From Planctomycetota bacterium (GTDB taxonomy: Bacteria > Planctomycetota > Planctomycetia > JALXBF01): a stretch of DNA of 64,000 nucleotides. The position numbers and the translations under genes were made by a program. The notes below the pieces were generated by a model. That model saw only the letters and a program-made list of their open reading frames with translations, ran no database searches and was not told the DNA's origin. The stretch lies in contig JALXBF010000138.1 in assembly GCA_026991575.1 (NCBI GenBank), positions 11,099-75,098 on the forward strand, given 5' to 3'. Each line of letters begins with the position of its first letter. Positions within the stretch are counted from its first letter, which is position 1. Positions 6,879-64,000 of this stretch are shown in pieces.

Positions 6879-8186
6879 CTATACGGGCGTGCGGCCGATG
6901 GAGTAGTAGCGGAAGCCGAGTTGCTTGAGCTTGGCGGGCTCGTAGAGGTTGCGTCCGTCGAAGATGACGTGCCCGCGCATGAGCGACTTCATACGCTCGA
7001 AGTCCGGCAGGCGAAACTGGTTCCACTCCGTCACGATGGCTAGCGCATCAGCGTCTCGAAGTGCCTCATAGAGGTCCTCGTGGTAGGTGACTCGATCTCC
7101 CAGCACCCGCCGGGCATTGGCCATAGCTTCCGGATCATGGGCGTGCACCTCGACGCCGTGGTCCAACAGCTGCTTGATCAGGACCAGCGACGGGGCCTCT
7201 CGAACATCGTCTGTCCGCGGTTTGAACGCCAGGCCCCAAACCGCGATCCGCTTGCCTGAGAGTTTCCCGTCGAAGTGTGCCCAGATCTTGCCGAACAGCA
7301 CCTGCTTCTGGTGTTCGTTCACGGCATCGACCGCTTCCAAGATGCGGGGCGGGACGCCGACCTGGCGGGCCAGCGCGGCCAGGGCGCGGACGTCTTTCGG
7401 GAAACACGAGCCGCCATAGCCGGCGCCCGGGAACAGGAACGCAAAGCCGATGCGCTGGTCGTGGCCAATGCCGCGGCGCACGTCGTTGATGTCGGCCCCA
7501 AGTCGTTCGCACAGGTTGGCCATCTCGTTGATAAAGCTGATCTTGGTCGACAGCAGCGCGTTGGCCACGTACTTGGTCATCTCGGCACTTTCCGGCGACA
7601 TCACCAGAAACGGTCGGTCGGTGCGCAGGAACGGGGCGTAGAGTTCGCGCAGTTTGTCCGCTGCCTCCTCGGACCGGACGCCTACGACCACGCGGTCCGG
7701 CTTCGTGAAGTCCTCAACCGCCGCGCCTTCCTTCATGAACTCCGGGTTCGACACCACCTCCACCGGCACGCGCGCCTTTTCGCGAAAGCGAGCGTCCACC
7801 CGCGCGTTGGTACCCACCGGAACGGTGCTCTTGATAACGACGGTCTTAGGCGCGTCCGCATGCTCGGCCAACGCGTCGACGACGGCCCAGAGGTTGCTCA
7901 GGTCGGCCGATCCGTCGTCCGACTGTGGCGTGCCTACGGCGATGAAGATCAGCTCCCCGTGACGCGTTGCCTCTGCGATGTCCGTTGTGAACCGCAAGCG
8001 ACCGGCGCGGGTATTGCGCTCGATGAGCTCCTCCAGACCCGGCTCGTAGATCGGCACGATACCCTGGCAGAGTTGTTCGATCTTGTTCCGGTCAATGTCC
8101 TGGCAAACGACGTCGTTGCCGCTTTCGGCAAAGCAAGTACCAGTAACCAGTCCCACGTAGCCGGTGCCGATGACTGTGATCTTCAT
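6879..8186 (-). CDS. ugd: UDP-glucose 6-dehydrogenase
   Basis: N-terminal Rossmann motif [23 protein letters not shown]. Catalytic region [11 protein letters not shown]-glucose/GDP-mannose dehydrogenase family architecture. ATG at 8186; the tracked ORF start at 8261 is an upstream extension. Confidence 0.85.
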
Positions 8187-8340
8187 CGCTGGCCTGCCCC
8201 AGATGATGCCAACGGTGTGGAGCCGGGACGCCGGCCCACTGAACCAGCTTGCCACAGACACGCGCGGCCCTGCCGAGATGCTGTCGGGTGGCCGCTGCCC
8301 GCCAGCGTGCTGGACGTAGTGCCTTGTGCCGTTCGCCCCA

Positions 8341-12629: not shown

Positions 12630-12935
12630 GCCGGTGGCGCGGCACAAGAGTTGAAACTCGCCGGACAGAGTGACCGCTACCAGGCGGCTCAGCTGTGAAA
12701 AAACTTCGTGCAGGGGTTGACAGCCGCGGGCCGCTTGGTCAAACTAGTAATCGCAGTGGGCGTGTTGCAGGGACGCAGTGGGGCGAACGGGCGATTCTCT
12801 TCCCTTCCTTGGGGCGATCGATCCATTCAGGGGCGATTCGGCAACGGGCCCGTCAGTGGGGCGGGTTCTGGTCTAGTCTTCCGCAGCGCGAGGTACCGGA
12901 AGGGAGCGTGTGGTCTAGTCATCTGGAGGTAGGTG

Positions 12936-14135
<1,200 letters not shown>

Positions 14136-14160
14136 GCAGCCCGCGGAACCCGAAGAAAGC

Positions 14161-14197
14161 AACGCCCCGGGCCTTGTCGGCCCGGGGCGTTCCTTTT
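14161..14197. terminator. bidirectional intrinsic terminator between convergent genes
   Basis: GC-rich hairpin aacgccccgggcc-ttgtc-ggcccggggcgtt, followed by cctttt on the + strand and preceded by a U-rich complement on the - strand. Confidence 0.65.
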
Positions 14198-14220
14198 CCC
14201 TCAGGCTCTCACTGCTGGTC

Positions 14221-15354
14221 TCACCAGCTGATGCCCAGCGACAGGAATGCGCCGTGGAAGATCACGCTGTTGTCGTCGTCGTACTGGCCGGGCTGGGCAA
14301 GGTTGAAGGAGAACTGATCGTAGCCGCCCGCGTAGCCAACCAGGTACATCAGCTCGTAGCCGGCACGGATCTCGAAGTTCTCATGGAAGCGCCACAACCC
14401 GTAGAGTCCGGTCTCGACGATGTAGGAAAATTCGGTCTCGTCACGGTCTTTTGAAAACGCTGTGTTGCCGGTGCGTTCCCTCAGGAGCACGTCCGTGTCG
14501 ATGATGTTGATGCCCGCGGAGGTGCGCAGGAAGGCGCGCGCCTCCAGGCCGGGCATCAGCTCATAGCTGCCCACCACGCCGAGCATCCCCGCCAGGATGT
14601 GGTTGTCGGCGTTCGTCACGTAGTCGAAATCCTGGAAGCCAGTGGCTGCAGGTGCCGGACCGTACTGGCTATAGATGCTGAAGTCATCGTCGATGTTCAG
14701 GTAGCGGATGCCGTATTCGGTGGCAAAGCGCAGGCTACTGCCGCAGTCGGTCGGGGCAGAGCACGGGTGGGTCCACGTCCGCTTGATGAGCTCCAGCCCG
14801 GCTGTGTCTGTTTCGTAGTCGACATCGATGTAGCTGACGTTCGTGCCGAAGTCATCGAAGGAGAACGGATGGTTGTAGACTGGCATGTTCACGTTGAACG
14901 GCCCGCTCAGCTGCTGGGACCGGGTCAAGTCATCGACCCACCAGCCCTGAAGTTCCCATTCCGTCCCGTCGCCAACCTGCTTGCCGATCACAAAGCGAGC
15001 ACCGAGCTCGACGCCCGAGTCGAGGTTTTCGCTGCTGATGACGCCAGCGGGGCTGACCACCAGTCCGCTTCCCTCCCACCGGTCTCGCTGGCGCCAGAGC
15101 AGCTCTCCGCGGAAGTACCAGCCGGCCAGCGTGATGTCCGGAATCCAGTGATAGTCCGTGTCCAGAATGCTCCGATCGATGACGATCGACTGGGGCGCTT
15201 CGGCCTTCTGCTCGCCCGGTAGGACCGTTACCGAGACGTCCGGAACGGACGGATAGAGCAGGTTGCCGTCACCGGCGACAGCAGGCTGCACGGCCCAGCC
15301 CGCAGCGCTCAGTGCGCACAGGATCTTGCTCAATCGACGCGCTAGGCGGCCCAT
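14221..15354 (-). CDS. putative outer-membrane beta-barrel (porin-like; BBP7-like) protein
   Basis: N-terminal signal peptide (MGRLARRLSKILCALSAAGWAVQPAVA). Alternating-hydrophobic beta-strand character. C-terminal aromatic terminus ...FLSLGISW. GGGGAGG RBS before ATG 15354. Confidence 0.5.
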   Translation of the reverse strand: MGRLARRLSKILCALSAAGWAVQPAVAGDGNLLYPSVPDVSVTVLPGEQKAEAPQSIVIDRSILDTDYHWIPDITLAGWYFRGELLWRQRDRWEGSGLVVSPAGVISSENLDSGVELGARFVIGKQVGDGTEWELQGWWVDDLTRSQQLSGPFNVNMPVYNHPFSFDDFGTNVSYIDVDYETDTAGLELIKRTWTHPCSAPTDCGSSLRFATEYGIRYLNIDDDFSIYSQYGPAPAATGFQDFDYVTNADNHILAGMLGVVGSYELMPGLEARAFLRTSAGINIIDTDVLLRERTGNTAFSKDRDETEFSYIVETGLYGLWRFHENFEIRAGYELMYLVGYAGGYDQFSFNLAQPGQYDDDNSVIFHGAFLSLGISW

Positions 15355-15488
15355 TACTTGCCTCCCCAAACGATGGTCTCTCACGCGCAGGGTCGGTGCG
15401 AGGCGGCCGGATCGACCGGTCTCACAGAAGTTATCGTCTGGAGCGGAAGGAGCGGTTTAGCCGGATGTGCCACAGCAGCAGGACAGCG

Positions 15489-15526
15489 AAAAAAGGCAGG
15501 CTGCCCATCGACCTGGGCAGCCTGCC
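15489..15526 (-). terminator. Rho-independent terminator downstream of the beta-helix gene (minus strand)
   Basis: Minus-strand hairpin GGCAGGCTGCCCAgg...ccTGGGCAGCCTGCC followed by TTTTTT (A-run 15489-15494 on the + strand). Confidence 0.6.
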
Positions 15527-15567
15527 AGGGCCCGCTTGGCGTGGACGATGACCTTGCGGTCCGGACG

Positions 15568-17982
15568 TTACCAGTTCTGAACCACGATCGGCAGCTCTAC
15601 AGCCACTACCTCGCCGCTTCGGGTCTTGGCGGTCATGATCAGCGTGTGACGACCGGGCTGCAAGTTGAGTTGACTGACGCGGAAGAAGACCGCGATATCC
15701 CGGATGCCATCGTTATTGAAGTGCCCGCGGCGGACCGCCAGCGGCTTGACGCCGTTGATGCGAATCGAACCAAGCCGCAGCTGGCGCGGGTCAAACTCCG
15801 GCGAACTGACCAACCGGCACTTAACACGCTGATTCGTGCCGCGGTAGAGCGATTGCGTGCAGATCGGCTCGGTGTTCATGCGCTTTAGTTCGGCAAACGC
15901 ATAGCCTACCCCGTCGTCACCGGGGCCCACGATGATGCGGCGGAAGCGGTCATTGAGGCTGTTGTCGCCGCCAAGTGACCCGACGATGTCGGCGCCGTCA
16001 ACGTAGCCGGCCGGCTGCCGCTCACGGATGATGTACCGTCCGGGTCGCAGGTCGGTAAACGAGTAGTTGCCGTTCGCATCGGTATATGTCACCAGGCGTA
16101 CACGCTGACCAAGGTCGTTGCGGCCGGCCAGCACGATCCGTACGCCTGCGATCCCCGGTTCGCCGTCGTCAAGACCGTTGCCATTACGGTCGACGAACAC
16201 GCGTCCTGAGAGACTTGCCGGTGCGAACCGGACCTCGCGAACCGGACCGAACTCCGAGGTGTTGCCATTCAACGTTGCTGTGGCCGTCAGCAAGGTGCCT
16301 TCGGTCACGCCGGCGGGTAGGGGCAGTTCGAACCGGAAGCGAGGGCTGTAGATCGACGCGGTGGCGACGATCACCCCGTCCAGTGTCGGACCGTACCAGT
16401 CGCTCGTTGCGTCGCCGTCAGCGCTGCTACCCTCGACAGCGGCTCCGATGAACGTGCGGCCTTCGCCGAAGCCGCTGGGGTCCGGCTCGGCAATGAAAAA
16501 CTCCACCTTGCTGCCCGGCTCGGCAAATCCCTCCAGCACCAGCTTGCCACTGTCAATCAGGGCGCTGGTGATGAGCGGGAAGTTCATCAGCTGATTGGAG
16601 CCGATATCCAGGTCGCCCGGGTCATTCAGCGTGACGCCGTCAAACTTTGCCGTCGTAACCTGCTCATGCAGGTCAATGCCCAGTTGGCGATTGTTGTACA
16701 CGGAGTTCTCAGTGATCGTGTTGCCGTCCGTCTGAACGACCCCCTCAATGTTCACCGAGATTCCCACTTCGTTGGCAAAGACCACGTTACGGCGGACGGT
16801 GTTGCCAGTGGCTCCCTTGCGAAGCGCGATACCAGCCGAGATGTTGTTGTACACCGTGTTGTTCTCGATCAGGTTGTTGCCCACGCCCGGTTCCACCGAG
16901 CCGACCTCGATGCCGTGGCCCGACGTGGCGTCAAATTCGGGACCGAGCACGTCGGTGTCGAAGTTGGTGTTGTGGTGCACCAGGTTGTACTGGACCACGC
17001 TGTTCCAGCCGTTGACGTCGATGCCGTCATGGTCGTCGTCTTCCCAGCCGTTCTGGAACACCTCGTTGTAGCGCACGTAGACCACCGAATAGTCCCGCGC
17101 ACCGTCGATGCCCACCTCACCGTTGTAGCCGACGTAGTTGTACTGCACCGTCAGCTGGCTTGGACTACTGACATGCACGCCGTCCTTGCGGGTGCGCAGC
17201 GAGATGCCCGGATCCGAACCGTCCGGCAACGTGCCGATCAGATTCCACTGCACCACCCGGTTCGTGCCGGCACCCGTAGCCCCCGTGCTCACGATCCCGT
17301 GCCGGGCGTGGTAGACGGCCAGCCCTTCGATCAACACGTCCGAGACATCGCCATCGATCGTGATACCGTCAAAGCCGCCCGCGTCGATGGCGATCTCGGG
17401 CCGCGGGTACGTGGGCAGGGGCACAGCGTCCACGCCGACCGTGCCGCCACTACCCACCGAGCCTTGATTCGTGTCGCCCACGTTACTGGTCTGCGTGAAG
17501 CCACGGATCTCGACGCTATCGGTGATCGTGGGCAGCGGACTGGCCAGCTCAATCACCCACCATTGCGATCCCACCGGTCGGCTTGCCGTGAAGCCCGGGT
17601 CCGACGTGGGGATGTTGAACTCGATGACGTCCGGGCCCGGATTCGCATTAGCGTCGAGGATGGCCTGTCGTAGCGACCCCGGCCCGGAGTCGGCCGTGGT
17701 GGTGACCGTGAAGGTGCTTAGCAAGCAGCGCTCTTCCAGCCGCTCCAGGCTAAGCCGATTCCGGCCCCGCCGTTGGCTCGTCCGACAGGCAGGCCGGCTG
17801 CCGAACCGCCGAAACAGTTGCCTCAGTCCCATCAAAACTACCTCCACCCCAATGCGGGCTCGTGACGGATCAGACACGGACGTGCGGCTAGATGACCCCG
17901 AGTTGCCCGTCCCTGGGGTGGCACCCGCAAGAGACCGGTGCCTGACACTGTTGTAAAGATGGAAAATATGGGCAGTCAACAC
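15568..17982 (-). CDS. secreted right-handed parallel beta-helix repeat protein with Cna-B/SdrD-like domain
   Basis: N-terminal RRGRNRLSLERLEERCLLS leader. Beta-helix repeats (NNLIENNTVYNNISAGIALRKGATGNTVRRNVVFANEVGISVN). A Cna-B-like segment (GRVFVDRNGNGLDDGEPGIAGVRIVLAG...YTDANGNYSFTDLRPGRYII). 804 aa. Confidence 0.7.
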   Translation of the reverse strand: MLTAHIFHLYNSVRHRSLAGATPGTGNSGSSSRTSVSDPSRARIGVEVVLMGLRQLFRRFGSRPACRTSQRRGRNRLSLERLEERCLLSTFTVTTTADSGPGSLRQAILDANANPGPDVIEFNIPTSDPGFTASRPVGSQWWVIELASPLPTITDSVEIRGFTQTSNVGDTNQGSVGSGGTVGVDAVPLPTYPRPEIAIDAGGFDGITIDGDVSDVLIEGLAVYHARHGIVSTGATGAGTNRVVQWNLIGTLPDGSDPGISLRTRKDGVHVSSPSQLTVQYNYVGYNGEVGIDGARDYSVVYVRYNEVFQNGWEDDDHDGIDVNGWNSVVQYNLVHHNTNFDTDVLGPEFDATSGHGIEVGSVEPGVGNNLIENNTVYNNISAGIALRKGATGNTVRRNVVFANEVGISVNIEGVVQTDGNTITENSVYNNRQLGIDLHEQVTTAKFDGVTLNDPGDLDIGSNQLMNFPLITSALIDSGKLVLEGFAEPGSKVEFFIAEPDPSGFGEGRTFIGAAVEGSSADGDATSDWYGPTLDGVIVATASIYSPRFRFELPLPAGVTEGTLLTATATLNGNTSEFGPVREVRFAPASLSGRVFVDRNGNGLDDGEPGIAGVRIVLAGRNDLGQRVRLVTYTDANGNYSFTDLRPGRYIIRERQPAGYVDGADIVGSLGGDNSLNDRFRRIIVGPGDDGVGYAFAELKRMNTEPICTQSLYRGTNQRVKCRLVSSPEFDPRQLRLGSIRINGVKPLAVRRGHFNNDGIRDIAVFFRVSQLNLQPGRHTLIMTAKTRSGEVVAVELPIVVQNW

Positions 17983-18278: not shown

Positions 18279-20036
18279 GTGCGGAGCGAGGACGTGTCGG
18301 TACTGAACGACGGATCCCTGGCCGCATTCCTCAGAGCTTGCGGCGCCCGTCAGCCACTGCACCTACTGCTGCGCAACCGGCAGACGGGGGAGACAACGAA
18401 GATCCAGCTCCGCTATCCATTTGCCGTTGTCGGACGGCACGTTCGCAGCGACCTACCCATTCCGGACTGGCGGGTAAGTTCACGGCATGCCTATCTGCAA
18501 GTATTCAACGGTGCCGTTTTCTGCGCCGATTTGGGCAGCAAGACGGGCTTGGTTTGGCGCAGCGGCCGCCACGGCGCGAACTGGTTTGTGCCCGGCGATG
18601 CGCTGGTGCTGGGCAATTACGAACTGGAGCTCTACGGACCATCCGCTAGGTTGGTTGTGGATGAGGCCCAACCACCGGTCAGCCCGTTACGCAAGCCACC
18701 CGACCCAGACTTGCGACCAGCGGCCTGGCTAGAGTTCCTCACCGGGAAGTCGCCCGAACGGTACTGGCGCGTCACTCGTCCGATGGTGCTGCTCGGACGG
18801 GCCCCCTGGTGCAAGCTCCAACTTTCTCACCGAACGGTCTCCACGGCGCACTGCGTGCTCCTCTGGCAAGCGGGGAACCTCTGGCTCGTGGATCTCAACA
18901 GCCGCTCAGGCATCCTCGTCAATGACCTACCGCAGCGGTGGGCCCGGCTCAACGATGGGGATATCTTCTCGCTCGGAGTCTTTTCGATTCGTTGCCACTA
19001 CGCCGCCCCGGACGACGTTGACCACCAGCAGCCGACGGCCAGCGTGCCCGAGCCTCACACCGTGGACGACATGGCCGATCAGCAACGCGCCACCGGGATC
19101 GAGGTGAGCGAGCGGGACACGGACACGTTACCGCCCTTCAGTGGACCGGCCCTGGCCGCAAGGCCCGCAGCCCGCTCTTCCGCCCAGGACGACCGAGTGC
19201 CGGTCTCGGCGCACACGGACCCGCCTGCCAGGTTGCTGATCCGGTCGGGTTCTGACGAGGAGGCGGGGCTGATGGTACGGCCCGAAGGGGGCGATGTCCC
19301 GGTTACGTTGACCCGCAATGACCTCAGCTGGCTTGTCGATCAGATGGCTGCATTCCAACAGCAGGTCTTCGATCAGTCGCAGCAACTAGTTCTCATGGTC
19401 CTGCAGGCGTTCGGCAGGATGCACAACGAGCAGATGGCCGTGATCAAGAAGGAGCTGGACGCCTTGAAGGAGATCAACCGGGAGCTTGTCTGGTTGAAGG
19501 CACGTCTGGCCCAGGCGCGACAGCCCGACAGCACACCGACCGGGCAGACTGTCCGGCGGGAGGCTACCACGCGCGTTACGACAGCCATCCGTGTGACACC
19601 AGGACCGAATGGAACCGGGACGCCCCCTGGTGCGGCGGCACCCAGCGGTGCTAAGTCGCAGCCCGCTCCGCCGCCAGCCAGCAGTTCCGTTGAGACAAGC
19701 CTGTCGCAACCGGGCCATGCTGAGCCCCTTCCGCGCGGCGCACAGGCAGCTGCTCCGAAGGCTGCAAACGAGTCGAAGGCTGAACGACGCAAGAGGAAAG
19801 TGCGGAGAGCTCCTGCGGCTTTCGAGAAGCGCTCCCGGGAGACTGCTGCGACAGAAGACAGCCCCGCTGGTTGGCACGCCAGCGAACCGCCTGGGGCTAG
19901 CGACGTCGAAGCAGCGGATATCCATGCGTGGCTTTGTCAACGCATGGCCGAGCTGCAGCAGGAGCAGGCGAGCCGGTGGCAGCGCATCATGGAACTGCTT
20001 GGTACTCCGTTCGGTGCCGGACGAGGGTTGCCGTAG
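18279..20036 (+). CDS. tandem FHA-domain protein with Pro-rich linker and C-terminal coiled coil
   Basis: Two FHA cores (...VGRHVRSDLPIPDWRVSSRHAYLQV...DLGSKTGLVW and ...LGRAPWCKLQLSHRTVSTAHCVLLW...DLNSRSGILVND). Then low-complexity P/A-rich segments and a KKELDALKEINRELVWLKARL coiled coil. GTG start. Confidence 0.7.
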   Translation: MRSEDVSVLNDGSLAAFLRACGARQPLHLLLRNRQTGETTKIQLRYPFAVVGRHVRSDLPIPDWRVSSRHAYLQVFNGAVFCADLGSKTGLVWRSGRHGANWFVPGDALVLGNYELELYGPSARLVVDEAQPPVSPLRKPPDPDLRPAAWLEFLTGKSPERYWRVTRPMVLLGRAPWCKLQLSHRTVSTAHCVLLWQAGNLWLVDLNSRSGILVNDLPQRWARLNDGDIFSLGVFSIRCHYAAPDDVDHQQPTASVPEPHTVDDMADQQRATGIEVSERDTDTLPPFSGPALAARPAARSSAQDDRVPVSAHTDPPARLLIRSGSDEEAGLMVRPEGGDVPVTLTRNDLSWLVDQMAAFQQQVFDQSQQLVLMVLQAFGRMHNEQMAVIKKELDALKEINRELVWLKARLAQARQPDSTPTGQTVRREATTRVTTAIRVTPGPNGTGTPPGAAAPSGAKSQPAPPPASSSVETSLSQPGHAEPLPRGAQAAAPKAANESKAERRKRKVRRAPAAFEKRSRETAATEDSPAGWHASEPPGASDVEAADIHAWLCQRMAELQQEQASRWQRIMELLGTPFGAGRGLP

Positions 20037-20110
20037 AAAGCCGTGCGGGGCGCAAAGAAGAATCCGGAGCTCATCTGCTCCGGATCCAGCCGCATGGCAT
20101 CATGTCCGCG

Positions 20111-20689
20111 TCAGCTGCTCACGCCCCTGGGTGGATTCGGGCGAGACGGCCCACTGTGGCGCGGCGTTGGCGGTCGGTAGCGTTCCGCGGTTGGCGGTCT
20201 GGGGCGTGGTGGCGGGGGCGGAGCTTGCAGTCCTACCCCGCTAGCCGGCACGCCCACAGAGCCACCGCCCAGACCTGGAAAGTAGCCGCCTAGGTCGCCG
20301 AAGGCGGTTGGATGACCGGTTGGTGGCATGCCCTGGCCAATACCACTAACTCCGGCCGCTCCGCCAAAGCTGGGTCTCGGCAGGACGATGCTGCCGAAGC
20401 GCGTGCCGATCAGGCGGTTCAGCCGCTCGCCCTGCAGCGCCACTCTCGTCTGAAGGTGCTGTAGCTGCATCTGGTTCAATTGCAGCTGGCGCCGCATCTC
20501 CAGCTCGGGCCGAATGCGCCGGTAGTACATGTAGGTCGGCCCAACGCGACGCAGCAGGTCGATGTACGGGCTGATCGGGGGACGCCGCTGGTAGAGCGGC
20601 CGAGGGTATACCTGAGCGTACAGCTCGCTGGCAAGCAGGGCTCCCAGCAAGCTGACCAGCGCCCAACACATCTTCCAGTGGCTGAACAT
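20111..20689 (-). CDS. hypothetical secreted protein (signal peptide, coiled-coil, Gly/Pro-rich C-terminus)
   Basis: MFSHWKMCWALVSLLGALLASELYA signal peptide. ATG at 20689. Confidence 0.4.
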   Translation of the reverse strand: MFSHWKMCWALVSLLGALLASELYAQVYPRPLYQRRPPISPYIDLLRRVGPTYMYYRRIRPELEMRRQLQLNQMQLQHLQTRVALQGERLNRLIGTRFGSIVLPRPSFGGAAGVSGIGQGMPPTGHPTAFGDLGGYFPGLGGGSVGVPASGVGLQAPPPPPRPRPPTAERYRPPTPRHSGPSRPNPPRGVSS

Positions 20690-20719
20690 GGTTGTGTCCT
20701 CTGGCCTAGCTACGCAAGC

Positions 20720-21151
20720 CTACTTCTGTTTCTCGTCAGCCTTGCCGGACGGGCCGTTTTTCTCGGGCTGCTGGCTGACTGCAGATTGGCCGGTCACGCC
20801 GCCGGGAATCGTGGCCGGCGCCGTAGTACCGTTGTTTGGCTTTCCGCTCTCATTGTCGCTTGCGACGGCGGGCAGTTCAATCGGTGCCCCCTGAGCAGCG
20901 CTGAACCGCTTTCGCCATTGCTCCCAGTTTGCCGGCCACCGACGCCACGTATTCGGGTAGTAACCATAGTGGTCGCTGTAGAACGCGTGCATCGACTTCT
21001 TGCGTCCGAATACGAGGCGGAAGATCCGGTCTAGCTGCAGGGAGAACCGCTTCCATTTCTCGCCCGCGCCGACCTCGTTGGCCACCGCAGGCAACAGGAC
21101 GCCCGCTGCCACGGCGGTGATGAGCCAGCGTTTCCAGCTTCCACGCGTCAT
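20720..21151 (-). CDS. hypothetical secreted Trp-rich protein
   Basis: Signal peptide MTRGSWKRWLITAVAAGVLLPAVA. Strong GGGAGGA RBS before ATG 21151. Confidence 0.4.
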   Translation of the reverse strand: MTRGSWKRWLITAVAAGVLLPAVANEVGAGEKWKRFSLQLDRIFRLVFGRKKSMHAFYSDHYGYYPNTWRRWPANWEQWRKRFSAAQGAPIELPAVASDNESGKPNNGTTAPATIPGGVTGQSAVSQQPEKNGPSGKADEKQK

Positions 21152-21194
21152 TCGTTGTCCTCCCGTCTCGCTTGCTCAAGCTGGGTTCAGCCGG

Positions 21195-22271
21195 TTAGAA
21201 CCCGAAGCCGAAGCCGCCCCCGAAACCACGGCGGCCAAGGTGGCCGAACTGGAACGCGCGGATGGTCGAGTGGCCGAACAGCGAGAACCCAAAGAGTCGC
21301 TCGACCGGAGCAGTGACTCGGGCGATGAAGCCGTCGGCAGCGTTCCAGAAGCTAGCCTTCACGTAGATCCGATCGCCGGGCAGCAGTTGGTAGTTCGTCG
21401 TCGGATCGCCGCCCCGGGTGATGGCTACCCAGTCGATGGGCAAGATCTGGTCACCTGTTCCATCCGGGGGGGCAGGTCGCGCAACCCACATCTCCGAGTG
21501 GGCGGCGGCAGTGGGGGGCAGGCCGCCGACCATGGCCATGGCGTCAAGCACCGTCTCGTTGCCCGTAATTGGGATGCGCACCACCTGCTCGCCCAGCCCG
21601 GCACCGTCGAAGATGATGTACGCCCATTTGCTGTTGTAGCTCAGCACGTCCAGAGCGATCTGCGGATCCTCCAGGTACTGCTTCAGGTGTCCTTCGATGA
21701 CCGTCTTGGCTTGCTCCAACGTCAGGCCAGCAACACGTACCGAGCCGTAGATCCCCAGGTTCACGGTACCGTCGGGGCGAACAAGGTGTTCGCCGGCGAT
21801 TTGCTGCATGGCGGCCATCTGGGCCAAGCTGACCATCACCTGGGGCTGCGCGAACGTCTGACCCAGGAACTGCTCGATCGCCTTCTTAGCTTCCTCAACC
21901 GTCAGCCCGGCAATCCGCACCCGGCCGTACTGGGCGCCCAGGTCGACATAGCCCTGTTCATCGATCGCGTACACCCCGTCAATCGGGGCATCGGGCAGAA
22001 GCCCGGTGGCCTGGATGTAGACCGCATCCAGCGGTTCGAGGTGGTACGGGGGCTTCGGCACAACCTTGCGCGCCTCGATGAGCAGTATGTCCGGTGGCTC
22101 GATCACGTACTCGGGCAGGTTCACTTTGGCCAGTTCGCGCGGTATGGCAGAACGCCGGATCGCGTCGGCTTCCTCCCGGGTCGGGACAGTGTGGCACCCG
22201 GTAAGAAACAACGTGAGTGCCATCCCGACGACTAAGCCGACAGAAGAGTTCCGTACAAGGCTCCGTCCCAT
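21195..22271 (-). CDS. polysaccharide export protein (OPX/Wza-family Poly_export + SLBB domains), lipoprotein
   Basis: Lipobox LFLTGC. Poly_export-like motif YVIEPPDILLIEAR...DGVYAIDEQGYVDLGAQYGRVRIAGLTVEEAKKAIEQFL. A second SLBB-like repeat. Gly/Phe-rich C-terminus (GFGGGFGFGF). ATG at 22271. Confidence 0.7.
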   Translation of the reverse strand: MGRSLVRNSSVGLVVGMALTLFLTGCHTVPTREEADAIRRSAIPRELAKVNLPEYVIEPPDILLIEARKVVPKPPYHLEPLDAVYIQATGLLPDAPIDGVYAIDEQGYVDLGAQYGRVRIAGLTVEEAKKAIEQFLGQTFAQPQVMVSLAQMAAMQQIAGEHLVRPDGTVNLGIYGSVRVAGLTLEQAKTVIEGHLKQYLEDPQIALDVLSYNSKWAYIIFDGAGLGEQVVRIPITGNETVLDAMAMVGGLPPTAAAHSEMWVARPAPPDGTGDQILPIDWVAITRGGDPTTNYQLLPGDRIYVKASFWNAADGFIARVTAPVERLFGFSLFGHSTIRAFQFGHLGRRGFGGGFGFGF

Positions 22272-22489
22272 GCATTCCCTCCCGCCACGCGGCGCGAGCG
22301 GCTGCTCGGACCTTCGAGTCAACCAGCTCCTTAGATCGATCCAGGTGCGCGGGCCGCATTCTGGCCAAAATAGCTACGCCGCGCACAACCCTCACAGTCC
22401 TTGCCTACTGCAAAGGATCGGTTCTGCCTGTAACAGACTTGAGGACGGCTCCGAACAACCGCCAGGAAGTGAATCTGAGACTAGAGCAC

Positions 22490-22528
22490 ACCACAAAGAC
22501 GAAGAGCCCCGCCCAAAGCGGGGCTCTT
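22490..22528 (-). terminator. terminator-like hairpin downstream of the 22580-23290 gene
   Basis: Perfect 11-bp stem aagagccccgc/gcggggctctt with a 5-nt loop. On the minus strand it is followed by a moderately U-rich tract. Confidence 0.45.
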
Positions 22529-22579
22529 GGGACAAAGTCTACCACCAGGGAGGGAAGGTTCTGCCAGGCAGTCCACTCA

Positions 22580-23290
22580 TCAGCGCTGCGCAGCCACAGC
22601 CGGAGCCCGTGGCGCGGACCGCACCGGGCGCCACACAACGCGCACCACGGTCACGCGGCGGTCACTCTGCTTGTTCGCGTCCGGCGTTTGGCCCTTCTGA
22701 TCGTCCTGCGGCTGTAGCTGGGGCGTACCTTTGGGCTGCTGCTGTGGTGCCGCGTCGGGAGGGGGCGGTGGCGGCACGGGCTGAGGCTGCTTCGTCTCTG
22801 GCCTTACGTCCGGCTCGGAAGCCCGCTCAGGTGCGGTTTCCGTTTGGGGCTGCGTACCGTTTGGAGCATAGTAGTAGCGGCGTTCTGTGCTGGGTGAGGG
22901 CAACTGCTCGACCTGCGGACGCGGTGCCTCAGGCGCGGGCTCAGGCCCAACCGTCTCGCATCGCTGTTGATACGTCGTGACGGGGATCGTACGCTGCTGC
23001 TCGACCACGGCAATGGTCGGTACCCACAGCGTATGGTACGTGCCAAAGATCGGGTCATACCAGCAGCGCTGTGTCCACGTCAGTTGCGGGACACGTTCGG
23101 TCACGGTCTGGTAGGTCGTGCGTGGCTCATAGTAGCACCGCCGGACCGTCGTGGTCGGCACCGTGCCCCCACTCGGGCTGCACGGTGTGCACACGTAGCC
23201 CGTGGGGGACCACCCCCAGATGCACGCAGCCGCAACGGCGGGACTCAACAACGCAGACAGCAAGACCAAGGGCCGTGTCATGCGTCCCAT
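22580..23290 (-). CDS. hypothetical secreted protein with Cys/Tyr/Thr-rich N-domain and Pro/Gln-rich tail
   Basis: Signal peptide MTRPLVLLSALLSPAVAAAC. Repeats of the type YYEPRTTYQTVTERVP / WYDPIFGTYHTLWVPT. Then a PQ-rich low-complexity tail. Confidence 0.45.
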   Translation of the reverse strand: MGRMTRPLVLLSALLSPAVAAACIWGWSPTGYVCTPCSPSGGTVPTTTVRRCYYEPRTTYQTVTERVPQLTWTQRCWYDPIFGTYHTLWVPTIAVVEQQRTIPVTTYQQRCETVGPEPAPEAPRPQVEQLPSPSTERRYYYAPNGTQPQTETAPERASEPDVRPETKQPQPVPPPPPPDAAPQQQPKGTPQLQPQDDQKGQTPDANKQSDRRVTVVRVVWRPVRSAPRAPAVAAQR

Positions 23291-26600: not shown

Positions 26601-28010
26601 CTAGAAACGCTGCCGGATGTAGTACGGTTCCGGGGGATGAGCACCAAAGGCGTAGACGGTCTGAAACCACACGGTGTGTGCTGTATCGCTACCTGACTCC
26701 TGTAGATCCTGACGGAACCATTCGTACTGGAAGCGGAAACGATTGAATTCCGTCAAGAAGTACGTGGCATGGACTGAGGCGGCTATCAAGTACCCGTCCT
26801 CACGCGGCAACTCGGTGGCGTCGAACCGCAAGCCGACAAACCATGGGCGGCTCAGCCGACGCTGTAGCAGCACATAGCCTCCCACGTCTGCTCGGGTTCC
26901 CCCGGTAGGATGCTCCGTCTCAGCCGCGTACAACTCAGCTTGCACCAACCATTCCCGATATGCGTTCGCACGTGCGTCGACCCAGGTCCACATGAAGTCA
27001 AGAGACTGAAGCAGGGAATATGTGGAGCCGCTGCTGAGTTCTTCGGCGGTGACGACCCCGTTGACAGCCACGGTCACGGTTTGCTCACCAGGGCCGAGCC
27101 AGCATGCCGGGTTCCACAGTGGGGCGGTCTCCGCGGGCCACTCGCGGTACCACTGGTGCCGGACCAGGGCCAACGGAAAGTCGGTGCCACGGACCGGGAT
27201 CGGCGCTTCGTCGGCTTCCTCGATCGGCTGCCCATTGGTCAGCTCCACCGTTATTTCGCGAATCCACGGGCCCGTCGTTCTCAGCCGGCGGCTGTACGAC
27301 ACCCCCGGTCGGATAAGCCCTTCGGGCCCCAGAAACTGCTGCAGCACAAGCGGCCGGTCCACGGTGGGCAGGTCATGGTCGTCCGTGAGGTTCGTCGGTG
27401 CGAGCGCCATTCGAAACAAGCCAATCTTTACAGTGCCATCCCCGACGAGTTGTTCCAAGGTGCGATGAAACGAGAAGTCGTGTAGGACCAGATACGCCTC
27501 CTCAAGCTCGACTTCCCCGCCAGAGAAGTGCAGCTTGAGCAGCGCGTCGGCGAATGGGTCGACCGCCGCGGTGGCGAGCAACTCGACGCCGCGCACGCGG
27601 AAGTCGTCCAGGTCCTCGGCCATCAGGTCAGCGTGGCGAAGGGGAGCAGAGTAGTCTGCGTCGGGGCCTGAGCTGACCTGGCCGAGAAAATCTCCAATTA
27701 GCGAGATGTTGGGATTGAACGCGGATAGCCGAGCACCGAGGCCGGCGCCGAGCTGAGGCGCTTCCGGGGCGGCCTGCCGCTGTCTCTCGGCCTCTTGGAG
27801 CATCCGCTCCAGTTCGTCTGCCAACCGGTCGCGTTGCTCAGCGTTCGTGACTGCCTTCCCAGCCGCCTCCTGTGCCGCGAACACCGGCGCGCCCAATCGC
27901 ACCGCAGCCTGCTCTGCTGCGATAGCCCGCGCTACGCCGCGCGACCACATCAGAACCGCGACGACCACCGCGACCAGCCACAACAATGCTTGGATGCTGC
28001 GTCGTGACAT
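26601..28010 (-). CDS. hypothetical protein, possible outer-membrane beta-barrel with N-terminal coiled-coil
   Basis: N-terminal TM/signal segment. Charged coiled-coil (AEQRDRLADELERMLQEAERQRQ). A beta-rich body. C-terminal ...YYIRQRF aromatic end. Immediately upstream (in the direction of transcription) of znuA-like. Confidence 0.45.
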   Translation of the reverse strand: MSRRSIQALLWLVAVVVAVLMWSRGVARAIAAEQAAVRLGAPVFAAQEAAGKAVTNAEQRDRLADELERMLQEAERQRQAAPEAPQLGAGLGARLSAFNPNISLIGDFLGQVSSGPDADYSAPLRHADLMAEDLDDFRVRGVELLATAAVDPFADALLKLHFSGGEVELEEAYLVLHDFSFHRTLEQLVGDGTVKIGLFRMALAPTNLTDDHDLPTVDRPLVLQQFLGPEGLIRPGVSYSRRLRTTGPWIREITVELTNGQPIEEADEAPIPVRGTDFPLALVRHQWYREWPAETAPLWNPACWLGPGEQTVTVAVNGVVTAEELSSGSTYSLLQSLDFMWTWVDARANAYREWLVQAELYAAETEHPTGGTRADVGGYVLLQRRLSRPWFVGLRFDATELPREDGYLIAASVHATYFLTEFNRFRFQYEWFRQDLQESGSDTAHTVWFQTVYAFGAHPPEPYYIRQRF

Positions 28011-28185
28011 GTCCTTGGCTCCGCAGAGCAACGAGAGGCCCGCGATCGACTCAGCCCCGTGCCACGCTGTCGAGAGGCCCGAGACTTACGTTGAGCGTAG
28101 ACTTCCAACAGTAACGCTCGAACGCGCCCGGCACCGCCGGGCACCATGCGAAACCGGGCCCGTGGCCGCTCGGGCCTGCGTCCGG

Positions 28186-28464
28186 CTAGCGATCAGTGCT
28201 CTGCGGTGGCGCGCGGCATGGGACGAAGTGCCTGGTGAGGCAGTCGGCACTAGGTGATGGATAAGGAAAGACTGAGCCAGAGCAGACGGCTGGCCAGACT
28301 GGATGCGTCGCCTGGTCGACTGCCAACGCCGCTGTGAGTGTCACTTGACACGCGACGCACCCCGCCTCGGCATGGGCCGACGCGTGCGCCGAAGCCAGTG
28401 GTAGCAGCACTACCACGGCGATCAACAGTGTCGCGAATGCGATATGGCGCGGCATGGCATCCGG
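28186..28464 (-). CDS. possible small secreted CxxC peptide (low confidence)
   Basis: C-terminal 92 codons of a long spurious ORF. MPRHIAFATLLIAVVVLLPLASAHA signal peptide, then SAHAEAGCVAC... (His-rich plus CxxC). No clear RBS. Third-position GC falls off in the second half. Confidence 0.25.
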   Translation of the reverse strand, partial: PDAMPRHIAFATLLIAVVVLLPLASAHASAHAEAGCVACQVTLTAALAVDQATHPVWPAVCSGSVFPYPSPSADCLTRHFVPCRAPPQSTDR

Positions 28465-28509
28465 TTGCGACGTTCGGACGGACCCTACCGATTGTATCGA
28501 GTCTGACGC

Positions 28510-28989
28510 GTGGTAGAGATGAATGTTCTGGCAGACCAGCGCGAATTGCCCCCTGTGCGGCTTCATATCCCCCGATCCGTATGGGCCAACATGTTGGACC
28601 ATGCTCGTCGCGTGCTGCCCGAAGAATGCTGTGGGCTGCTGGCCGGTCACGGTAGCCAGTGCAGCCGCCTCTACGAACTGGAGAATGCCGATCACAGCCC
28701 GGTGAGGTACTCTGCGGAGCCGCGTTCGCTGATTGCTGCCTTTCGCGACATGCGTGAGCGTGGCCTGGAGCTTCTTGCCATCTACCACTCGCACCCGACA
28801 TCCGCTGCAGTGCCAAGCCGCACGGACTTGGCCGAAAACTACTACGGCACGGTGCCGCGAATCATCATCTCGCTGGCGGTCAATCCGCCTGAGGTTCGTG
28901 GCTACGTGCTGCATCCGGATCGGTGGCAGGAAATCGAGCTGGTCGTCGTAGCGGACCCGCCTGCTCGGGGCAGTATCATTGACTACTGA
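28510..28989 (+). CDS. Mov34/MPN/PAD-1 (JAMM) family metalloprotease
   Basis: JAMM motif: E (EECCGLL) ... HSHPTSAAVPSRTD (H-x-H-x7-S-x2-D). 159 aa. GTG at 28510 or ATG at 28519. Confidence 0.7.
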   Translation: MVEMNVLADQRELPPVRLHIPRSVWANMLDHARRVLPEECCGLLAGHGSQCSRLYELENADHSPVRYSAEPRSLIAAFRDMRERGLELLAIYHSHPTSAAVPSRTDLAENYYGTVPRIIISLAVNPPEVRGYVLHPDRWQEIELVVVADPPARGSIIDY

Positions 28990-29016
28990 TCTGTCGCTGA
29001 CTTCCTCAGTCAACCG

Positions 29017-29511
29017 TTGACGGTAGCCGCAGGACGAGGAGGAGAACGGCTCGTGGAACGCACTTTCGTGATGGTCAAACCGGATGGTGTTCAGCGACGC
29101 CTGGTGGGCGAGATCATCAGCCGTTTCGAGCGCAAGGGCCTGAAGCTGGTTGCGTTGAAGCTCGTTCAACTGACGCGCGACCAGGCGGCTCAGCTCTATT
29201 CCGTTCACCGCGAGCGGCCTTTCTTCAACGATCTGGTTGAGTTCGTCTGCTCGGCACCCGTGGTCGCGATGGTCTGGGAGGGACCGGACGTGGTTGCCGT
29301 CGCGCGCCGTCTGATCGGCGCGACCAACGCGTTGCAGGCCGAGCCGGGCACGATTCGTGGCGACTTCGGCGTAAGCACCCAGATGAACCTCGTTCATGCA
29401 TCCGACAGCCCTGTCTCGGTGGCGCGGGAGCTGCCTGTGGTGTTCGACCAGCAGGAGCTGGTCAGTTACACGCTGGCGACCGAACCATGGCTCGGGACCG
29501 ACGCGAGCTAG
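29017..29511 (+). CDS. ndk: nucleoside-diphosphate kinase
   Basis: ERTFVMVKPDGVQRRLVGEIISRFE...NLVHASDS (active-site His). The true start is probably the GTG near 29053. Confidence 0.9.
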   Translation: MTVAAGRGGERLVERTFVMVKPDGVQRRLVGEIISRFERKGLKLVALKLVQLTRDQAAQLYSVHRERPFFNDLVEFVCSAPVVAMVWEGPDVVAVARRLIGATNALQAEPGTIRGDFGVSTQMNLVHASDSPVSVARELPVVFDQQELVSYTLATEPWLGTDAS

Positions 29512-37354: not shown

Positions 37355-38527
37355 CTACGGCACGGCATGGCAGAGCCGCTCATAGAGCTGGACGTAGGCG
37401 GTCACCTCCGCCTGCACGTCCCAGCTTGCCATATACCGTCGGCCCCCTTCAGCGGCGCGGTCACGCAGTGCGCAGTCGTCCAGCGCACGGGCAATCGCAC
37501 TGGCCAGTTCATGGGGGGACTCAGGGGGAACCAGCACGCCCCCCCCGAAACGCTCAACCAACTCCCTGGCCCCCTCGACAGCCGTGACAACCACAGGCAA
37601 CCCGCAAGCCAACGCCTCCAGCACCACATTCGGTTGCCCTTCCCAGCGTGATGGCAACACAAGCAGATCGGCCGCTTGCATCAAGCTGGCCAGGTCATTG
37701 CGGAAGCCAAGCCAGCGAACCGCGTCCGCAACGCCCAGCGCGCCCGCCAGACGCTCATAGCTTGCCCGGTTACCCCGGCCGGCGACCCAGAGGACGATGT
37801 CCGGACGCTCATCCAACAGCAGCGGTAGACTTCTCAACAGCACGTCCAGTCCTTTCTGGTGCGTCAACCGGCCGGCGAACAGCAGCACCTCGTCCCGCTC
37901 CCCCGTGCCCAAGGCACGCCGGCACGCCGCACGGTCCACCGGGGGCTGTGGCGGTTCGACCGCGTTGGGAATCACCGTCAGACGGGCGCGGGCAACCCCA
38001 TGTCTCACCAGAAATTGTGCCACGCGGTCACTTACTGCCGTGACGTGATCGGCCAGCCGCCAGGTAAGCTGTTCGGCCACCCGCTGCCACCGATTGCCCC
38101 GCTCCGCAACGCGGACGCTCGCCACGACGGGCAGTGGCCGTAGCAGCTTCAGCACGCGGGCAGCTAGGTTGCCGTGGCACAGGATGCTGTGCACGATGTG
38201 TGGATCGAAGCGGTCGGCGATGCGAACGAGGCGGGCCAGGGCAAGGGGGGCTCGTGCCGGCGTTGCCGCCAGCGCGGTCACCGCATAGCCCTCCGCTTGC
38301 AGCGCTTGACCAAGGGCTCCCAAAGGGCCGAGCGAAACGATGTGCGGCTGCCACGCCGGGGGCAGGTGGCGGACCAGTCGGGCAAGGAATCGCTCGGCAC
38401 CTCCGATGTCGGTGTCCGTGATCACATACAGGACACGGTGCCGCAATCTGCAACAAGACCTGCGCTCGGTGCTACCACCTGGACGACGCAACGTGGCTGG
38501 TCCCGTTGTGTTTCCGCTCGCGGTCAC
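37355..38527 (-). CDS. glycosyltransferase family 4
   Basis: VLYVITDTDIGGAERF N-terminal GT-B motif. C-terminal EGQPNVVLEALACGLPVVVTAVEGAREL (EX7E-like). The start is uncertain (GTG at 38527 or an internal TTG). Confidence 0.8.
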   Translation of the reverse strand: MTASGNTTGPATLRRPGGSTERRSCCRLRHRVLYVITDTDIGGAERFLARLVRHLPPAWQPHIVSLGPLGALGQALQAEGYAVTALAATPARAPLALARLVRIADRFDPHIVHSILCHGNLAARVLKLLRPLPVVASVRVAERGNRWQRVAEQLTWRLADHVTAVSDRVAQFLVRHGVARARLTVIPNAVEPPQPPVDRAACRRALGTGERDEVLLFAGRLTHQKGLDVLLRSLPLLLDERPDIVLWVAGRGNRASYERLAGALGVADAVRWLGFRNDLASLMQAADLLVLPSRWEGQPNVVLEALACGLPVVVTAVEGARELVERFGGGVLVPPESPHELASAIARALDDCALRDRAAEGGRRYMASWDVQAEVTAYVQLYERLCHAVP

Positions 38528-63651: not shown

Positions 63652-64000
63652 ATGAGTCCGGAGCGCAGATCGGACAGCGAGGGACCGGTGCTGGGTGCCC
63701 AGGTGAAGTTGTTGAGAGAGCGGCTTTGCGACGCACCGGTCGGTGCCTGGATGCACCCCTGCCCGTACTTGCCCGGCCGGATCTCCTTTCAGATAGGCAC
63801 CGACTGCACCGACGCTATGTCTGCATGGGATTACCAGGTCCTGCTGGAGCATAACTTCCGGCGATCTGGTCCGTTGGTCTACACAGTAGGGTGTGATGGC
63901 TGTGTGGAGTGCCGGAGCCTGAGGGTTCGTGCCGATGAGTTTCAGCCGTCTCGCACCCAACGCCGCTGCTGGCGCCGTAACGCGGACCTTTCGATTCGCA
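63652..64000 (+). CDS. arginyl/leucyl-tRNA--protein transferase family (Ate1/Bpt-like), N-terminal part; continues past window end
   Basis: The translation from ATG 63652 contains ...HPCPYLPGRISFQIGTD...AWDYQVLLEHNFRRSGPLVYTVGCDGCVECRSLRVRADEFQPSRTQRRCWRRN. This matches the conserved C-Y-L-P-G / G-F-RRSG / C-x2-C / RRN pattern of ATE/Bpt N-terminal domains. Not in the ORF track because there is no stop in the window. Confidence 0.45.
   Translation, partial: MSPERRSDSEGPVLGAQVKLLRERLCDAPVGAWMHPCPYLPGRISFQIGTDCTDAMSAWDYQVLLEHNFRRSGPLVYTVGCDGCVECRSLRVRADEFQPSRTQRRCWRRNADLSIR

Follow-up and report, generated by a model that had tools for sequence, protein, structure and literature searches.

We analyzed a 64,000-nucleotide stretch of DNA from a bacterium of the Planctomycetota (GenBank assembly GCA_026991575.1, contig JALXBF010000138.1, positions 11,099 to 75,098, hereafter called the window), in which a gene for a Wza-family polysaccharide-export (OPX) lipoprotein is followed by genes for two small secreted proteins, here named P3 and P2, that converge on a gene for a protein with two FHA domains. 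We consider it probable (about 0.6) that this locus is the outer-membrane end of a split planctomycete polysaccharide export pathway, together with an FHA reader that acts at the assembly step; no novel type of secretion machinery is involved. An earlier note, made from the sequence alone, had proposed an FHA-controlled export module composed of the OPX lipoprotein, three secreted proteins (P2, P3, and a third, P5), and the tandem-FHA protein. A link between this FHA protein and polysaccharide is plausible, since its family recurs beside polysaccharide genes, whereas direct gating of a stand-alone pore is not supported.

The OPX lipoprotein and its downstream partners

One genome per species was scanned with an OPX alignment, which yielded 80 loci from the Gemmatales, Pirellulales, and Planctomycetales, or 81 with the window. 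Unsupervised clustering of the open reading frames (ORFs) in the 80 loci returned one recurrent family directly 3′ of the OPX gene, and iterated in-house profiles found P2 in 50 of the 81 loci, nearly always directly after OPX, and P3 in 44. When the 65 species-level loci with at least 1.5 kb of sequence beyond OPX were considered, P2 and/or P3 was directly downstream on the same strand in 58. The strict P3 motif was present in 53 of 6,619 ORFs; all 11 of the ORFs that were outside the profile hits, and nearly all of the others, were directly downstream of OPX on the same strand. This motif added four loci, such that 62 of the 65 had P2 and/or P3 and three had neither.

The conserved unit is OPX plus P2 plus P3, and P5 is a clade-specific neighbor. 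That one OPX subfamily is almost always accompanied by two unnamed families of small proteins appears to be new, with no literature search aimed at the P2 and P3 families themselves; export of the Wza type, exosortase loci, and regulators with FHA domains were known before. The gene order was OPX-P2-P3 in all 16 of the other species that have both small genes, as opposed to OPX-P3-P2 in the window and its close relatives (loci L083 to L087), and the swap amounts to a local inversion of two small genes.

The OPX protein matched the Pfam family Poly_export (PF02563) with an E-value of 7.6e-25 for the whole protein. Scanned in halves, it contained two separate Poly_export domains (46.3 and 49.8 bits, gathering cut-off 28), the second of which is partial, and this tandem architecture appears to be new. 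The Pfam SLBB match was weak (16.8 to 17.8 bits, under the 27-bit cut-off); in a PDB search, a profile built from 23 family members aligned residues 161 to 303 with residues 99 to 231 of Wza (E 3.5e-18), which identifies the SLBB domain. The ten best Foldseek matches of an AlphaFold2 model (mean predicted local distance difference test score, pLDDT, of 76) to the PDB were all Wza or other OPX proteins, with a probability of 1.0. From the N terminus onward, the protein consists of an LTGC lipobox, a Poly_export domain, the partial Poly_export domain, one SLBB-like domain, helices at 308 to 327 and 334 to 341, and a Gly/Phe tail that ends in GRRGFGGGFGFGF, which bears out the earlier description of an OPX lipoprotein with Poly_export, SLBB, and a Gly/Phe end. 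The lipoprotein signal was read from the sequence and an alignment (A1), in which G25 and C26 of the lipobox are at least 90% conserved. Most members of the subfamily in that alignment end in a Gly-rich stretch with Phe as the last residue (...GF), a feature reminiscent of the aromatic residue with which outer-membrane proteins end.

The start of the OPX gene is most likely the ATG at 22271, which is preceded by a GGGAGGG ribosome-binding site and agrees with the public gene call. More than 6,500 homologues were found, and class 1 OPX proteins have been reported in 56 of 62 planctomycete genomes (Saidi et al.). No curated NCBIfam OPX family reached its cut-off with the window protein; TIGR03027 (pepcterm_export) matched in part, with 64.5 bits against a cut-off of 180. 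Residues 308 to 327 are amphipathic (hydrophobic moment 1.42), and a weak second HMMER stretch of the OPX profile extends to residue 341 of Wza and reaches the start of its D4 helix. This amphipathic helix near the C terminus could span the outer membrane, and by analogy with Wza, the protein would form a polymer-conducting ring oligomer.

Escherichia coli Wza (PDB 2J58; Wza-Wzc complexes 9R60-9R69) was the best match in the PDB by both sequence profile and fold. The two proteins have in common the lipoprotein character, the Poly_export (PES) domain, the SLBB fold, and a C-terminal helix, and relatives of the window OPX, like Wza, are encoded near a Wzc-like PCP/tyrosine kinase. However, in place of the D1-D2-D3 arrangement of Wza, the window protein has two Poly_export domains, one SLBB domain, and a Gly/Phe tail. 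The window also has no adjacent wzb-wzc, and the OPX subfamily has P2 and/or P3 downstream, which Wza loci lack. A second point of comparison is the class-3 OPX proteins that work with a β-barrel, such as WzaX/WzpX of Myxococcus xanthus (PMC9603273, PMC9601211, PMC12819527), which are similar in that the partners are separately encoded and the pathway genes can be split over several loci. Class-3 proteins are at most 280 residues long and have no C-terminal helix, whereas the window OPX has 358 residues and such a helix; furthermore, class-3 systems use 18-stranded barrels, whereas the partners in the window are small helical or disordered proteins. Neighbor clustering of the 80 loci gave no recurrent barrel-sized family (a barrel-specific model was not run), and a BBP7-like putative barrel protein in the window (14221-15384) had no counterpart in these loci.

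The P2 protein has a signal peptide that ends in AQ, followed by RPxxSPYLNLLR...NYYGLVRP, a Gln-rich helix of about 40 residues, TGHxxxF...YF, and a Gly/Pro-rich tail. A search with the single P2 sequence found only three proteins, so that an alignment was needed; the resulting profile matched 2,553 representatives (clusters at 50% identity) at E ≤ 1e-10 among 1.84 billion proteins. The best 150 matches listed were small proteins, and every named one that was checked was labeled "hypothetical". The AlphaFold2 model of P2 (pLDDT 63) consists of the signal helix, one short and one long helix (the latter at 55 to 95), and a disordered remainder. P3, like P2, carries a cleavable-looking signal peptide, and its motif GYYxTxWRxWP, which reads HYGYYPNTWRRWP in the window, precedes a low-complexity Pro-rich tail. 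P5 has a Cys/Thr/Tyr-rich N-terminal half and a Pro/Gln-rich tail. The compositions given in the earlier note were correct, in that P3 has 7 Trp in 143 residues, P2 is Gly-rich with a predicted long helix, and P5 is Pro/Thr/Gln-rich overall with 6 Cys.

That note had also called for profile searches of these proteins, and they came back blank: P2, P3, and P5 matched nothing in Pfam, in NCBIfam, or in profile searches of the PDB. The view that the three proteins have no assignable domains thus holds, but they do not form one set, because P2 and P3 belong to a conserved core with OPX and P5 is restricted to a clade. Homologues of P5 were found only in the closest relatives (L083 to L087), at 37 to 60% identity, and P5 was ruled out as a core member of the cassette because it had no homologue in the 80 other species. 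Small low-complexity proteins with signal peptides are encoded beside the OPX gene in the E. coli gfcABCDE and yjbEFGH loci (GfcA and YjbE). P2 and P3 resemble these proteins in general character, but no sequence relationship to them was detected (P2, P3, and P5 had no Pfam or NCBIfam match) and the motifs differ.

The genes around the cassette were evaluated in the 42 OPX loci that have at least 8 kb of sequence on each side, and partners were counted within 9 kb. It was found that 21 of these loci had a PCP, an exosortase, a priming transferase, or Wzm/Wzt, whereas in the other half, the cassette was alone. A full-length Wzc-like PCP/tyrosine kinase was present in 17 of the 42, and an exosortase in 13, all of which also had the PCP. 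The in-house PCP profile also matches ATPases of the ParA/MinD type, and therefore, only hits that span the N-terminal Wzz-like part were counted. In NCBIfam, neighbors of OPX matched the eps_fam tyrosine kinase (137.6 bits, cut-off 108) and 8TM_EpsH (123.1 bits, cut-off 105.6), whereas EPS_sugtrans was slightly under its cut-off (285.7 against 295.6). Other recurrent neighbors were an UpxY/RfaH-like antiterminator, also under the NCBIfam cut-off, and a CapD-like enzyme and a family 4 glycosyltransferase (GT4) that were named from their sequences.

No gene for a PCP (Wzc), an exosortase, a priming sugar transferase, or an ABC permease of the Wzm type was found in the 64 kb of the window (flippase and polymerase models were not run), which agrees with the earlier statement that no capsule partners are adjacent. 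The further idea of a module that has no Wzc partner is contradicted by the PCP found in the 17 relatives. Because half of the well-flanked relatives pair the cassette with a PCP, an exosortase, or a priming transferase, the lone cassette of the window is best seen as a split-off part of an ordinary extracellular polysaccharide pathway. Split polysaccharide gene clusters are known in Myxococcus.

Relatives of the cassette resemble the PEP-CTERM/exosortase (EpsH) loci of Haft et al. 2006 (PMC1569441), in that they lie beside an exosortase, a PCP, Bac_transf, family 2 and family 4 glycosyltransferases (GT2 and GT4), and a DUF3473 deacetylase; that paper reports exosortase-linked polysaccharide loci in Planctomycetes. 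They differ in that all XrtA-specific models were under their cut-offs, the exosortase of the relatives is closest to XrtD/XrtW, and the window itself has no exosortase. To our knowledge, P2, P3, and the FHA family are not among the components described for PEP-CTERM/exosortase systems.

The tandem-FHA protein family

The FHA protein consists of FHA1 (about residues 30 to 115), FHA2 (about 150 to 237), a Pro/Ala-rich disordered region, a conserved Gln-rich helix (about 350 to 410), and a C-terminal helix (about 545 to 575). This is in keeping with the 585-residue protein with two FHA domains and a long proline-rich region of the earlier note. Pfam FHA (PF00498) matched in two stretches (E 7.7e-23, 81.1 bits, cut-off 20.7), and there was no further Pfam domain in residues 255 to 585. 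In the family alignment (A2), G52, R53, R69, H70, G173, S188, and H191 are invariant, and GR and SxxH, which we take to be the phospho-threonine-binding residues of FHA domains, are kept in both domains. The family is marked by the tandem FHA domains, a C-terminal FGRMHxEQM, and the helix HAWLxxRxAxLxxE..WQR. No signal peptide or membrane-spanning segment was found in the protein, which has a maximum 19-residue hydropathy of 1.02, and the FHA protein is predicted to be cytoplasmic because it has no such hydrophobic segment. If so, direct contact with an outer-membrane lipoprotein would be impossible.

The only PDB profile matches of the protein were the FHA domains of OdhI/GarA, FhaA, and Rv1747, with FHA1 nearest to OdhI/GarA and FHA2 nearest to FhaA. 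The cut-offs of curated equivalogs were not reached (FhaB/FipA, 48.6 against 125; OdhI/GarA, 34.8 against 200; GltG, 31.5 against 650). In Mycobacterium tuberculosis, FhaA binds phosphorylated MviN, and Rv1747 is a tandem-FHA ABC exporter. The FHA domains in the window have the canonical GR/SxxH residues, as in these two proteins, whereas the conserved C-terminal helices are unique to the window family. By analogy, an FHA reader in the cytoplasm might link Ser/Thr kinases to the assembly or export of glycans at the inner membrane. The parallels with the type VI secretion system (T6SS) protein Fha and the type III secretion system (T3SS) protein YscD that had been drawn in the earlier note fared less well. 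The TagH/Fha model (TIGR03354) gave 46.4 bits against a cut-off of 120.25, and although Yop-YscD_cpl matched (58.9 bits, cut-off 33.2), the window protein has neither the membrane segment nor the periplasmic ring domain of YscD. No T6SS or T3SS genes were found among the window ORFs that were scanned, which were not all of the ORFs.

As a lone query, the FHA protein matched no metagenome locus, and an alignment was needed. A metagenome scan with a four-sequence family alignment gave 73 loci, which formed 39 clusters at 60% identity with the window protein apart from them. Flanking sequence of 5 kb or more was available for 17 clusters; 11 of these had specific polysaccharide genes, and 2 more had an epimerase only. 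The commonest neighbor was a short priming glycosyl-phosphotransferase (Bac_transf), which in 12 loci was convergent with the FHA gene and 28 to 207 bp past its stop, a fixed position that argues against chance. Also recurrent were epimerase, Wzm/Wzt, TPR proteins, exosortase, PCP, and OPX/P2/P3. At least four gene layouts were seen in which an OPX or P2 gene adjoined the FHA gene (L088, L106, L112/L131, L124, L128, and L141). One of these, L124, has on one strand OPX-P2-FHA-exosortase-PCP-Bac_transf-GT2-deacetylase as assigned by Pfam, and the start of its FHA gene overlaps the end of P2. In a Pfam census of 112 neighbor ORFs from 26 dereplicated FHA loci, nucleotide-sugar and polysaccharide families ranked at the top. 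The repeated presence of this FHA family at polysaccharide loci appears to be new; a full-text literature search returned no paper that ties FHA proteins to polysaccharide export in Planctomycetes.

Other genes were also seen repeatedly near members of the FHA family. In two FHA clusters (16 loci), an ORF of 455 to 650 residues preceded the FHA gene on the same strand, at distances that ranged from about 80 to 120 bp up to about 1.5 kb (for example, L105 7340-9292, L114 8503-9870, and L156 7341-9185). Its C-terminal region is hydrophobic by eye, and it gave a weak N-terminal match to Ceramidase_alk (27 bits, under the cut-off) and no NCBIfam match. A ParA-like ATPase and an ORF of about 540 residues that matched no family recurred together 3 to 9 kb from the FHA gene in L110, L114, L116, L125, L140, L146, and L155, and some of the polysaccharide/FHA loci may be on plasmids or integrated elements. 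Among the same 112 neighbor ORFs (alignment A5), proteins with Sigma54_activat and HTH_8 accounted for 3 and T6SS Hcp for 2. PEP-CTERM systems employ a sigma-54-dependent regulator.

Gene layout and surroundings in the window

The window has a G+C content of about 64%, and its closest named relatives are Gemmatales/Gemmataceae planctomycetes. The five ORFs were found where the earlier note had placed them and with the domains it gave, according to the ORF list, Pfam, and public gene calls; the same genes are called in public assemblies with lengths of 580, 192, 143, 358, and 236 residues. The possibility that they are chance ORFs of high-GC DNA was ruled out, as all five are conserved in relatives. 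Table 1 gives the coordinates.

Table 1. Genes and hairpins of the OPX and FHA region (positions in the window).
Feature	Coordinates	Strand	Remarks
Tandem-FHA protein	18279..20036	+	585 aa ORF; 580 aa in the public gene call, which has its start 5 codons further in
Terminator-like hairpin between the convergent stops, which are 74 bp apart	20060..20087	-	Consensus scan and sequence; followed by TTCTTT on the minus strand
P2, small secreted protein whose family is large and unnamed	20111..20689	-	192 aa ORF
P3, small secreted Trp-rich protein	20720..21151	-	143 aa ORF
OPX (Wza-family) lipoprotein	21195..22271	-	358 aa; ORF reaches upstream to TTG at 22322
Terminator-like hairpin, 12-bp stem with 8 G-C pairs, then T-rich CGTCTTTGTG	22502..22528	-	52 bp past the P5 stop; the OPX start lies about 230 bp further on
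P5, secreted, possibly lipidated (AAAC)	22580..23290	-	236 aa ORF

The earlier note described the FHA gene as divergent from the minus-strand genes, but the two are convergent, with stops at 20036 and 20111 and a hairpin between them, and therefore, they have no shared promoter region. The gaps of 43 bp between OPX and P3 and 30 bp between P3 and P2, together with the terminator-like hairpin after P2, make OPX-P3-P2 an operon-like cassette. P5 is probably a separate transcription unit with its own terminator-like hairpin, because the 257 bp between P5 and the start of the OPX ORF (22322) contain this hairpin and a T-rich run. Terminator-like sites in the region were no commoner than in shuffled sequence, and so both hairpins count by position alone. 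A promoter scan found no sigma-70-like promoter, and nothing in the whole window reached the Rfam gathering threshold.

The sole sugar-metabolism genes found in the 64 kb encode a UDP-glucose/GDP-mannose dehydrogenase (6879-8261, minus strand) and a GT4 glycosyltransferase (37355-38527, minus strand); each lies over 10 kb away from the cassette, among housekeeping genes. A second FHA protein (41751-43493, plus strand, 580 residues) has an FHA-GAF-HATPase_c architecture, is histidine-kinase-like, and matches the FHA-family profile weakly, via its FHA domain only. A set of surface-protein genes typical of planctomycetes (12933-17982) adjoins the FHA gene, and this set includes a DUF1559/N_methyl protein, the BBP7-like protein, and an 804-residue beta-helix/SdrD_B protein. 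This set is syntenic in close relatives only and is without counterpart in the 80 OPX loci. Four large ORFs of 403 to 664 residues had no Pfam match at E ≤ 1e-5 (26601-28031, 28186-29397, 57938-59932, and 62071-63960, all on the minus strand), and the first of these is directly upstream of a ZnuA/ABC-3 metal-uptake pair.

A proposed split pathway and its alternatives

We propose that OPX-P3-P2 would encode the periplasmic and outer-membrane end of an extracellular-polysaccharide pathway, in which the OPX ring would pass the polymer out of the cell, as Wza does. P2 and P3 would be lineage-specific accessory subunits or tethers of this translocon rather than its cargo. The components at the inner membrane (Wzc-like PCP/tyrosine kinase, exosortase, priming transferase, and glycosyltransferases) would be encoded in another part of the genome, as is so for half of the relatives. 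As far as its residues and neighbors indicate, the tandem-FHA protein probably acts in the cytoplasm as a reader of phospho-threonine that is tied to polysaccharide assembly. It would act on an inner-membrane step, with the priming transferase, the PCP, or an ABC exporter as its candidate target, possibly a phosphorylated one, and it would not gate the outer-membrane pore.

Several findings weigh against this proposal. The role suggested for P2 and P3 is drawn from gene order alone, and the P2 model, a helix plus disorder that is unfit for a fold search, gives no clue to function. Genes in the loci were called simply as the longest ORFs, and the profiles used for the families had been built in-house. 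At the C terminus of OPX, Pfam Wza_C was unmatched, the last 56 residues had no Pfam match of any kind, and over the predicted helices the pLDDT falls from 87 to 30, with low confidence for the last 20 residues. On the FHA side, no Ser/Thr kinase was among the 25 commonest Pfam families of the 112 neighbor ORFs, and the counts imply an enrichment of polysaccharide genes that is at least 10-fold relative to a background that we estimated ourselves (few such genes per 6-9 Mb genome) and not to an empirical null.

Further evidence of this kind bears on an explanation that we regard as unlikely but as the first to be weighed, namely that the FHA gene is beside the cassette merely by inherited synteny in a narrow clade and serves an unrelated pathway, such as envelope growth or general Ser/Thr signaling. 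Viewed from the OPX side, the FHA family was within 9 kb in 2 of the 80 other species: L011 has a full-length FHA orthologue convergent after OPX-P2, and in L064, the gene is an unrelated FHA ORF. In L085, which has an OPX that is 79% identical, P5-OPX-P3-P2 is kept and the FHA gene has been lost. The conserved FHA and OPX neighborhood on which the earlier note had staked its module was, therefore, largely absent. Close relatives (OPX 86 to 92% identical) keep the whole block CysK-P5-OPX-P3-P2-FHA-beta-helix including housekeeping genes, which says nothing about function. In addition, 4 of the 17 well-flanked FHA clusters had no polysaccharide gene, and FHA proteins are numerous in planctomycetes, as the second one in the window illustrates. 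Opposed to this explanation is the occurrence of the FHA family beside polysaccharide genes in many arrangements (L124, L112/L131, L128, L106, L141, and L011, and the 12 loci with a convergent Bac_transf), because so many differing arrangements suggest selection for proximity rather than inherited order.

It is also doubtful, to a slightly greater degree, that P2 and P3 function as secreted proteins of the matrix or surface, which exit the cell along with the polymer or bind to it, instead of being parts of the translocon. Their cleavable-looking signal peptides and long low-complexity Gly/Pro-rich tails would suit such proteins, as would their fast change, with 58 to 74% identity where OPX is 92% identical; moreover, exosortase systems are known to pair polysaccharide loci with surface-sorted proteins (PMC1569441). 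However, neither P2 nor P3 has a PEP-CTERM-like C-terminal membrane anchor in its sequence, and each has a short, strongly conserved motif and is encoded beside OPX across three orders, which is more typical of an interaction partner.

The weakest explanation, that OPX and the three secreted proteins form a self-contained, Wzc-independent pore module gated by the FHA protein via phospho-threonine, could draw on the lack of a PCP, exosortase, priming transferase, or Wzm-type permease in the window (a flippase model was not run), on the lack of such partners within 9 kb in 21 of the 42 well-flanked relatives, and on the FHA genes that adjoin OPX-P2 in several lineages, but it is very improbable, as in the remaining half of those relatives this cassette is found beside a PCP and an exosortase, the FHA protein, with neither a membrane segment nor a signal peptide, has no access to a lipoprotein of the periplasm or outer membrane, the gene orientation is convergent with an intervening hairpin, the FHA gene is absent from 78 of the 80 OPX loci and from L085, and P5 is not conserved.

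Returning to the split pathway with an FHA reader, a more far-reaching version is conceivable, which we put forward as speculation: OPX-P2-P3 might be a planctomycete-wide three-component translocon in which P2 (a coiled coil) and P3 (a Trp motif and a Pro-rich tether) are obligatory, for example, to bridge an unusual envelope, with FHA phospho-threonine control operating beside the Wzc tyrosine cycle. Planctomycetes are prominent biofilm formers and surface colonizers, and no experimental study of their polysaccharide export machinery was found in the literature. The general picture of Wza-type export is unchanged by the present results. The two large unnamed families, which accompany a single OPX subfamily at about 95% of the species-level loci, are candidates for lineage-specific parts of the translocon, and a pathway that is often split across loci explains why such genes look like orphans. 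That polysaccharide loci repeatedly contain members of a single FHA family suggests control of polymer assembly by Ser/Thr phospho-signaling in the phylum, which, if true, would complement control by tyrosine kinases.

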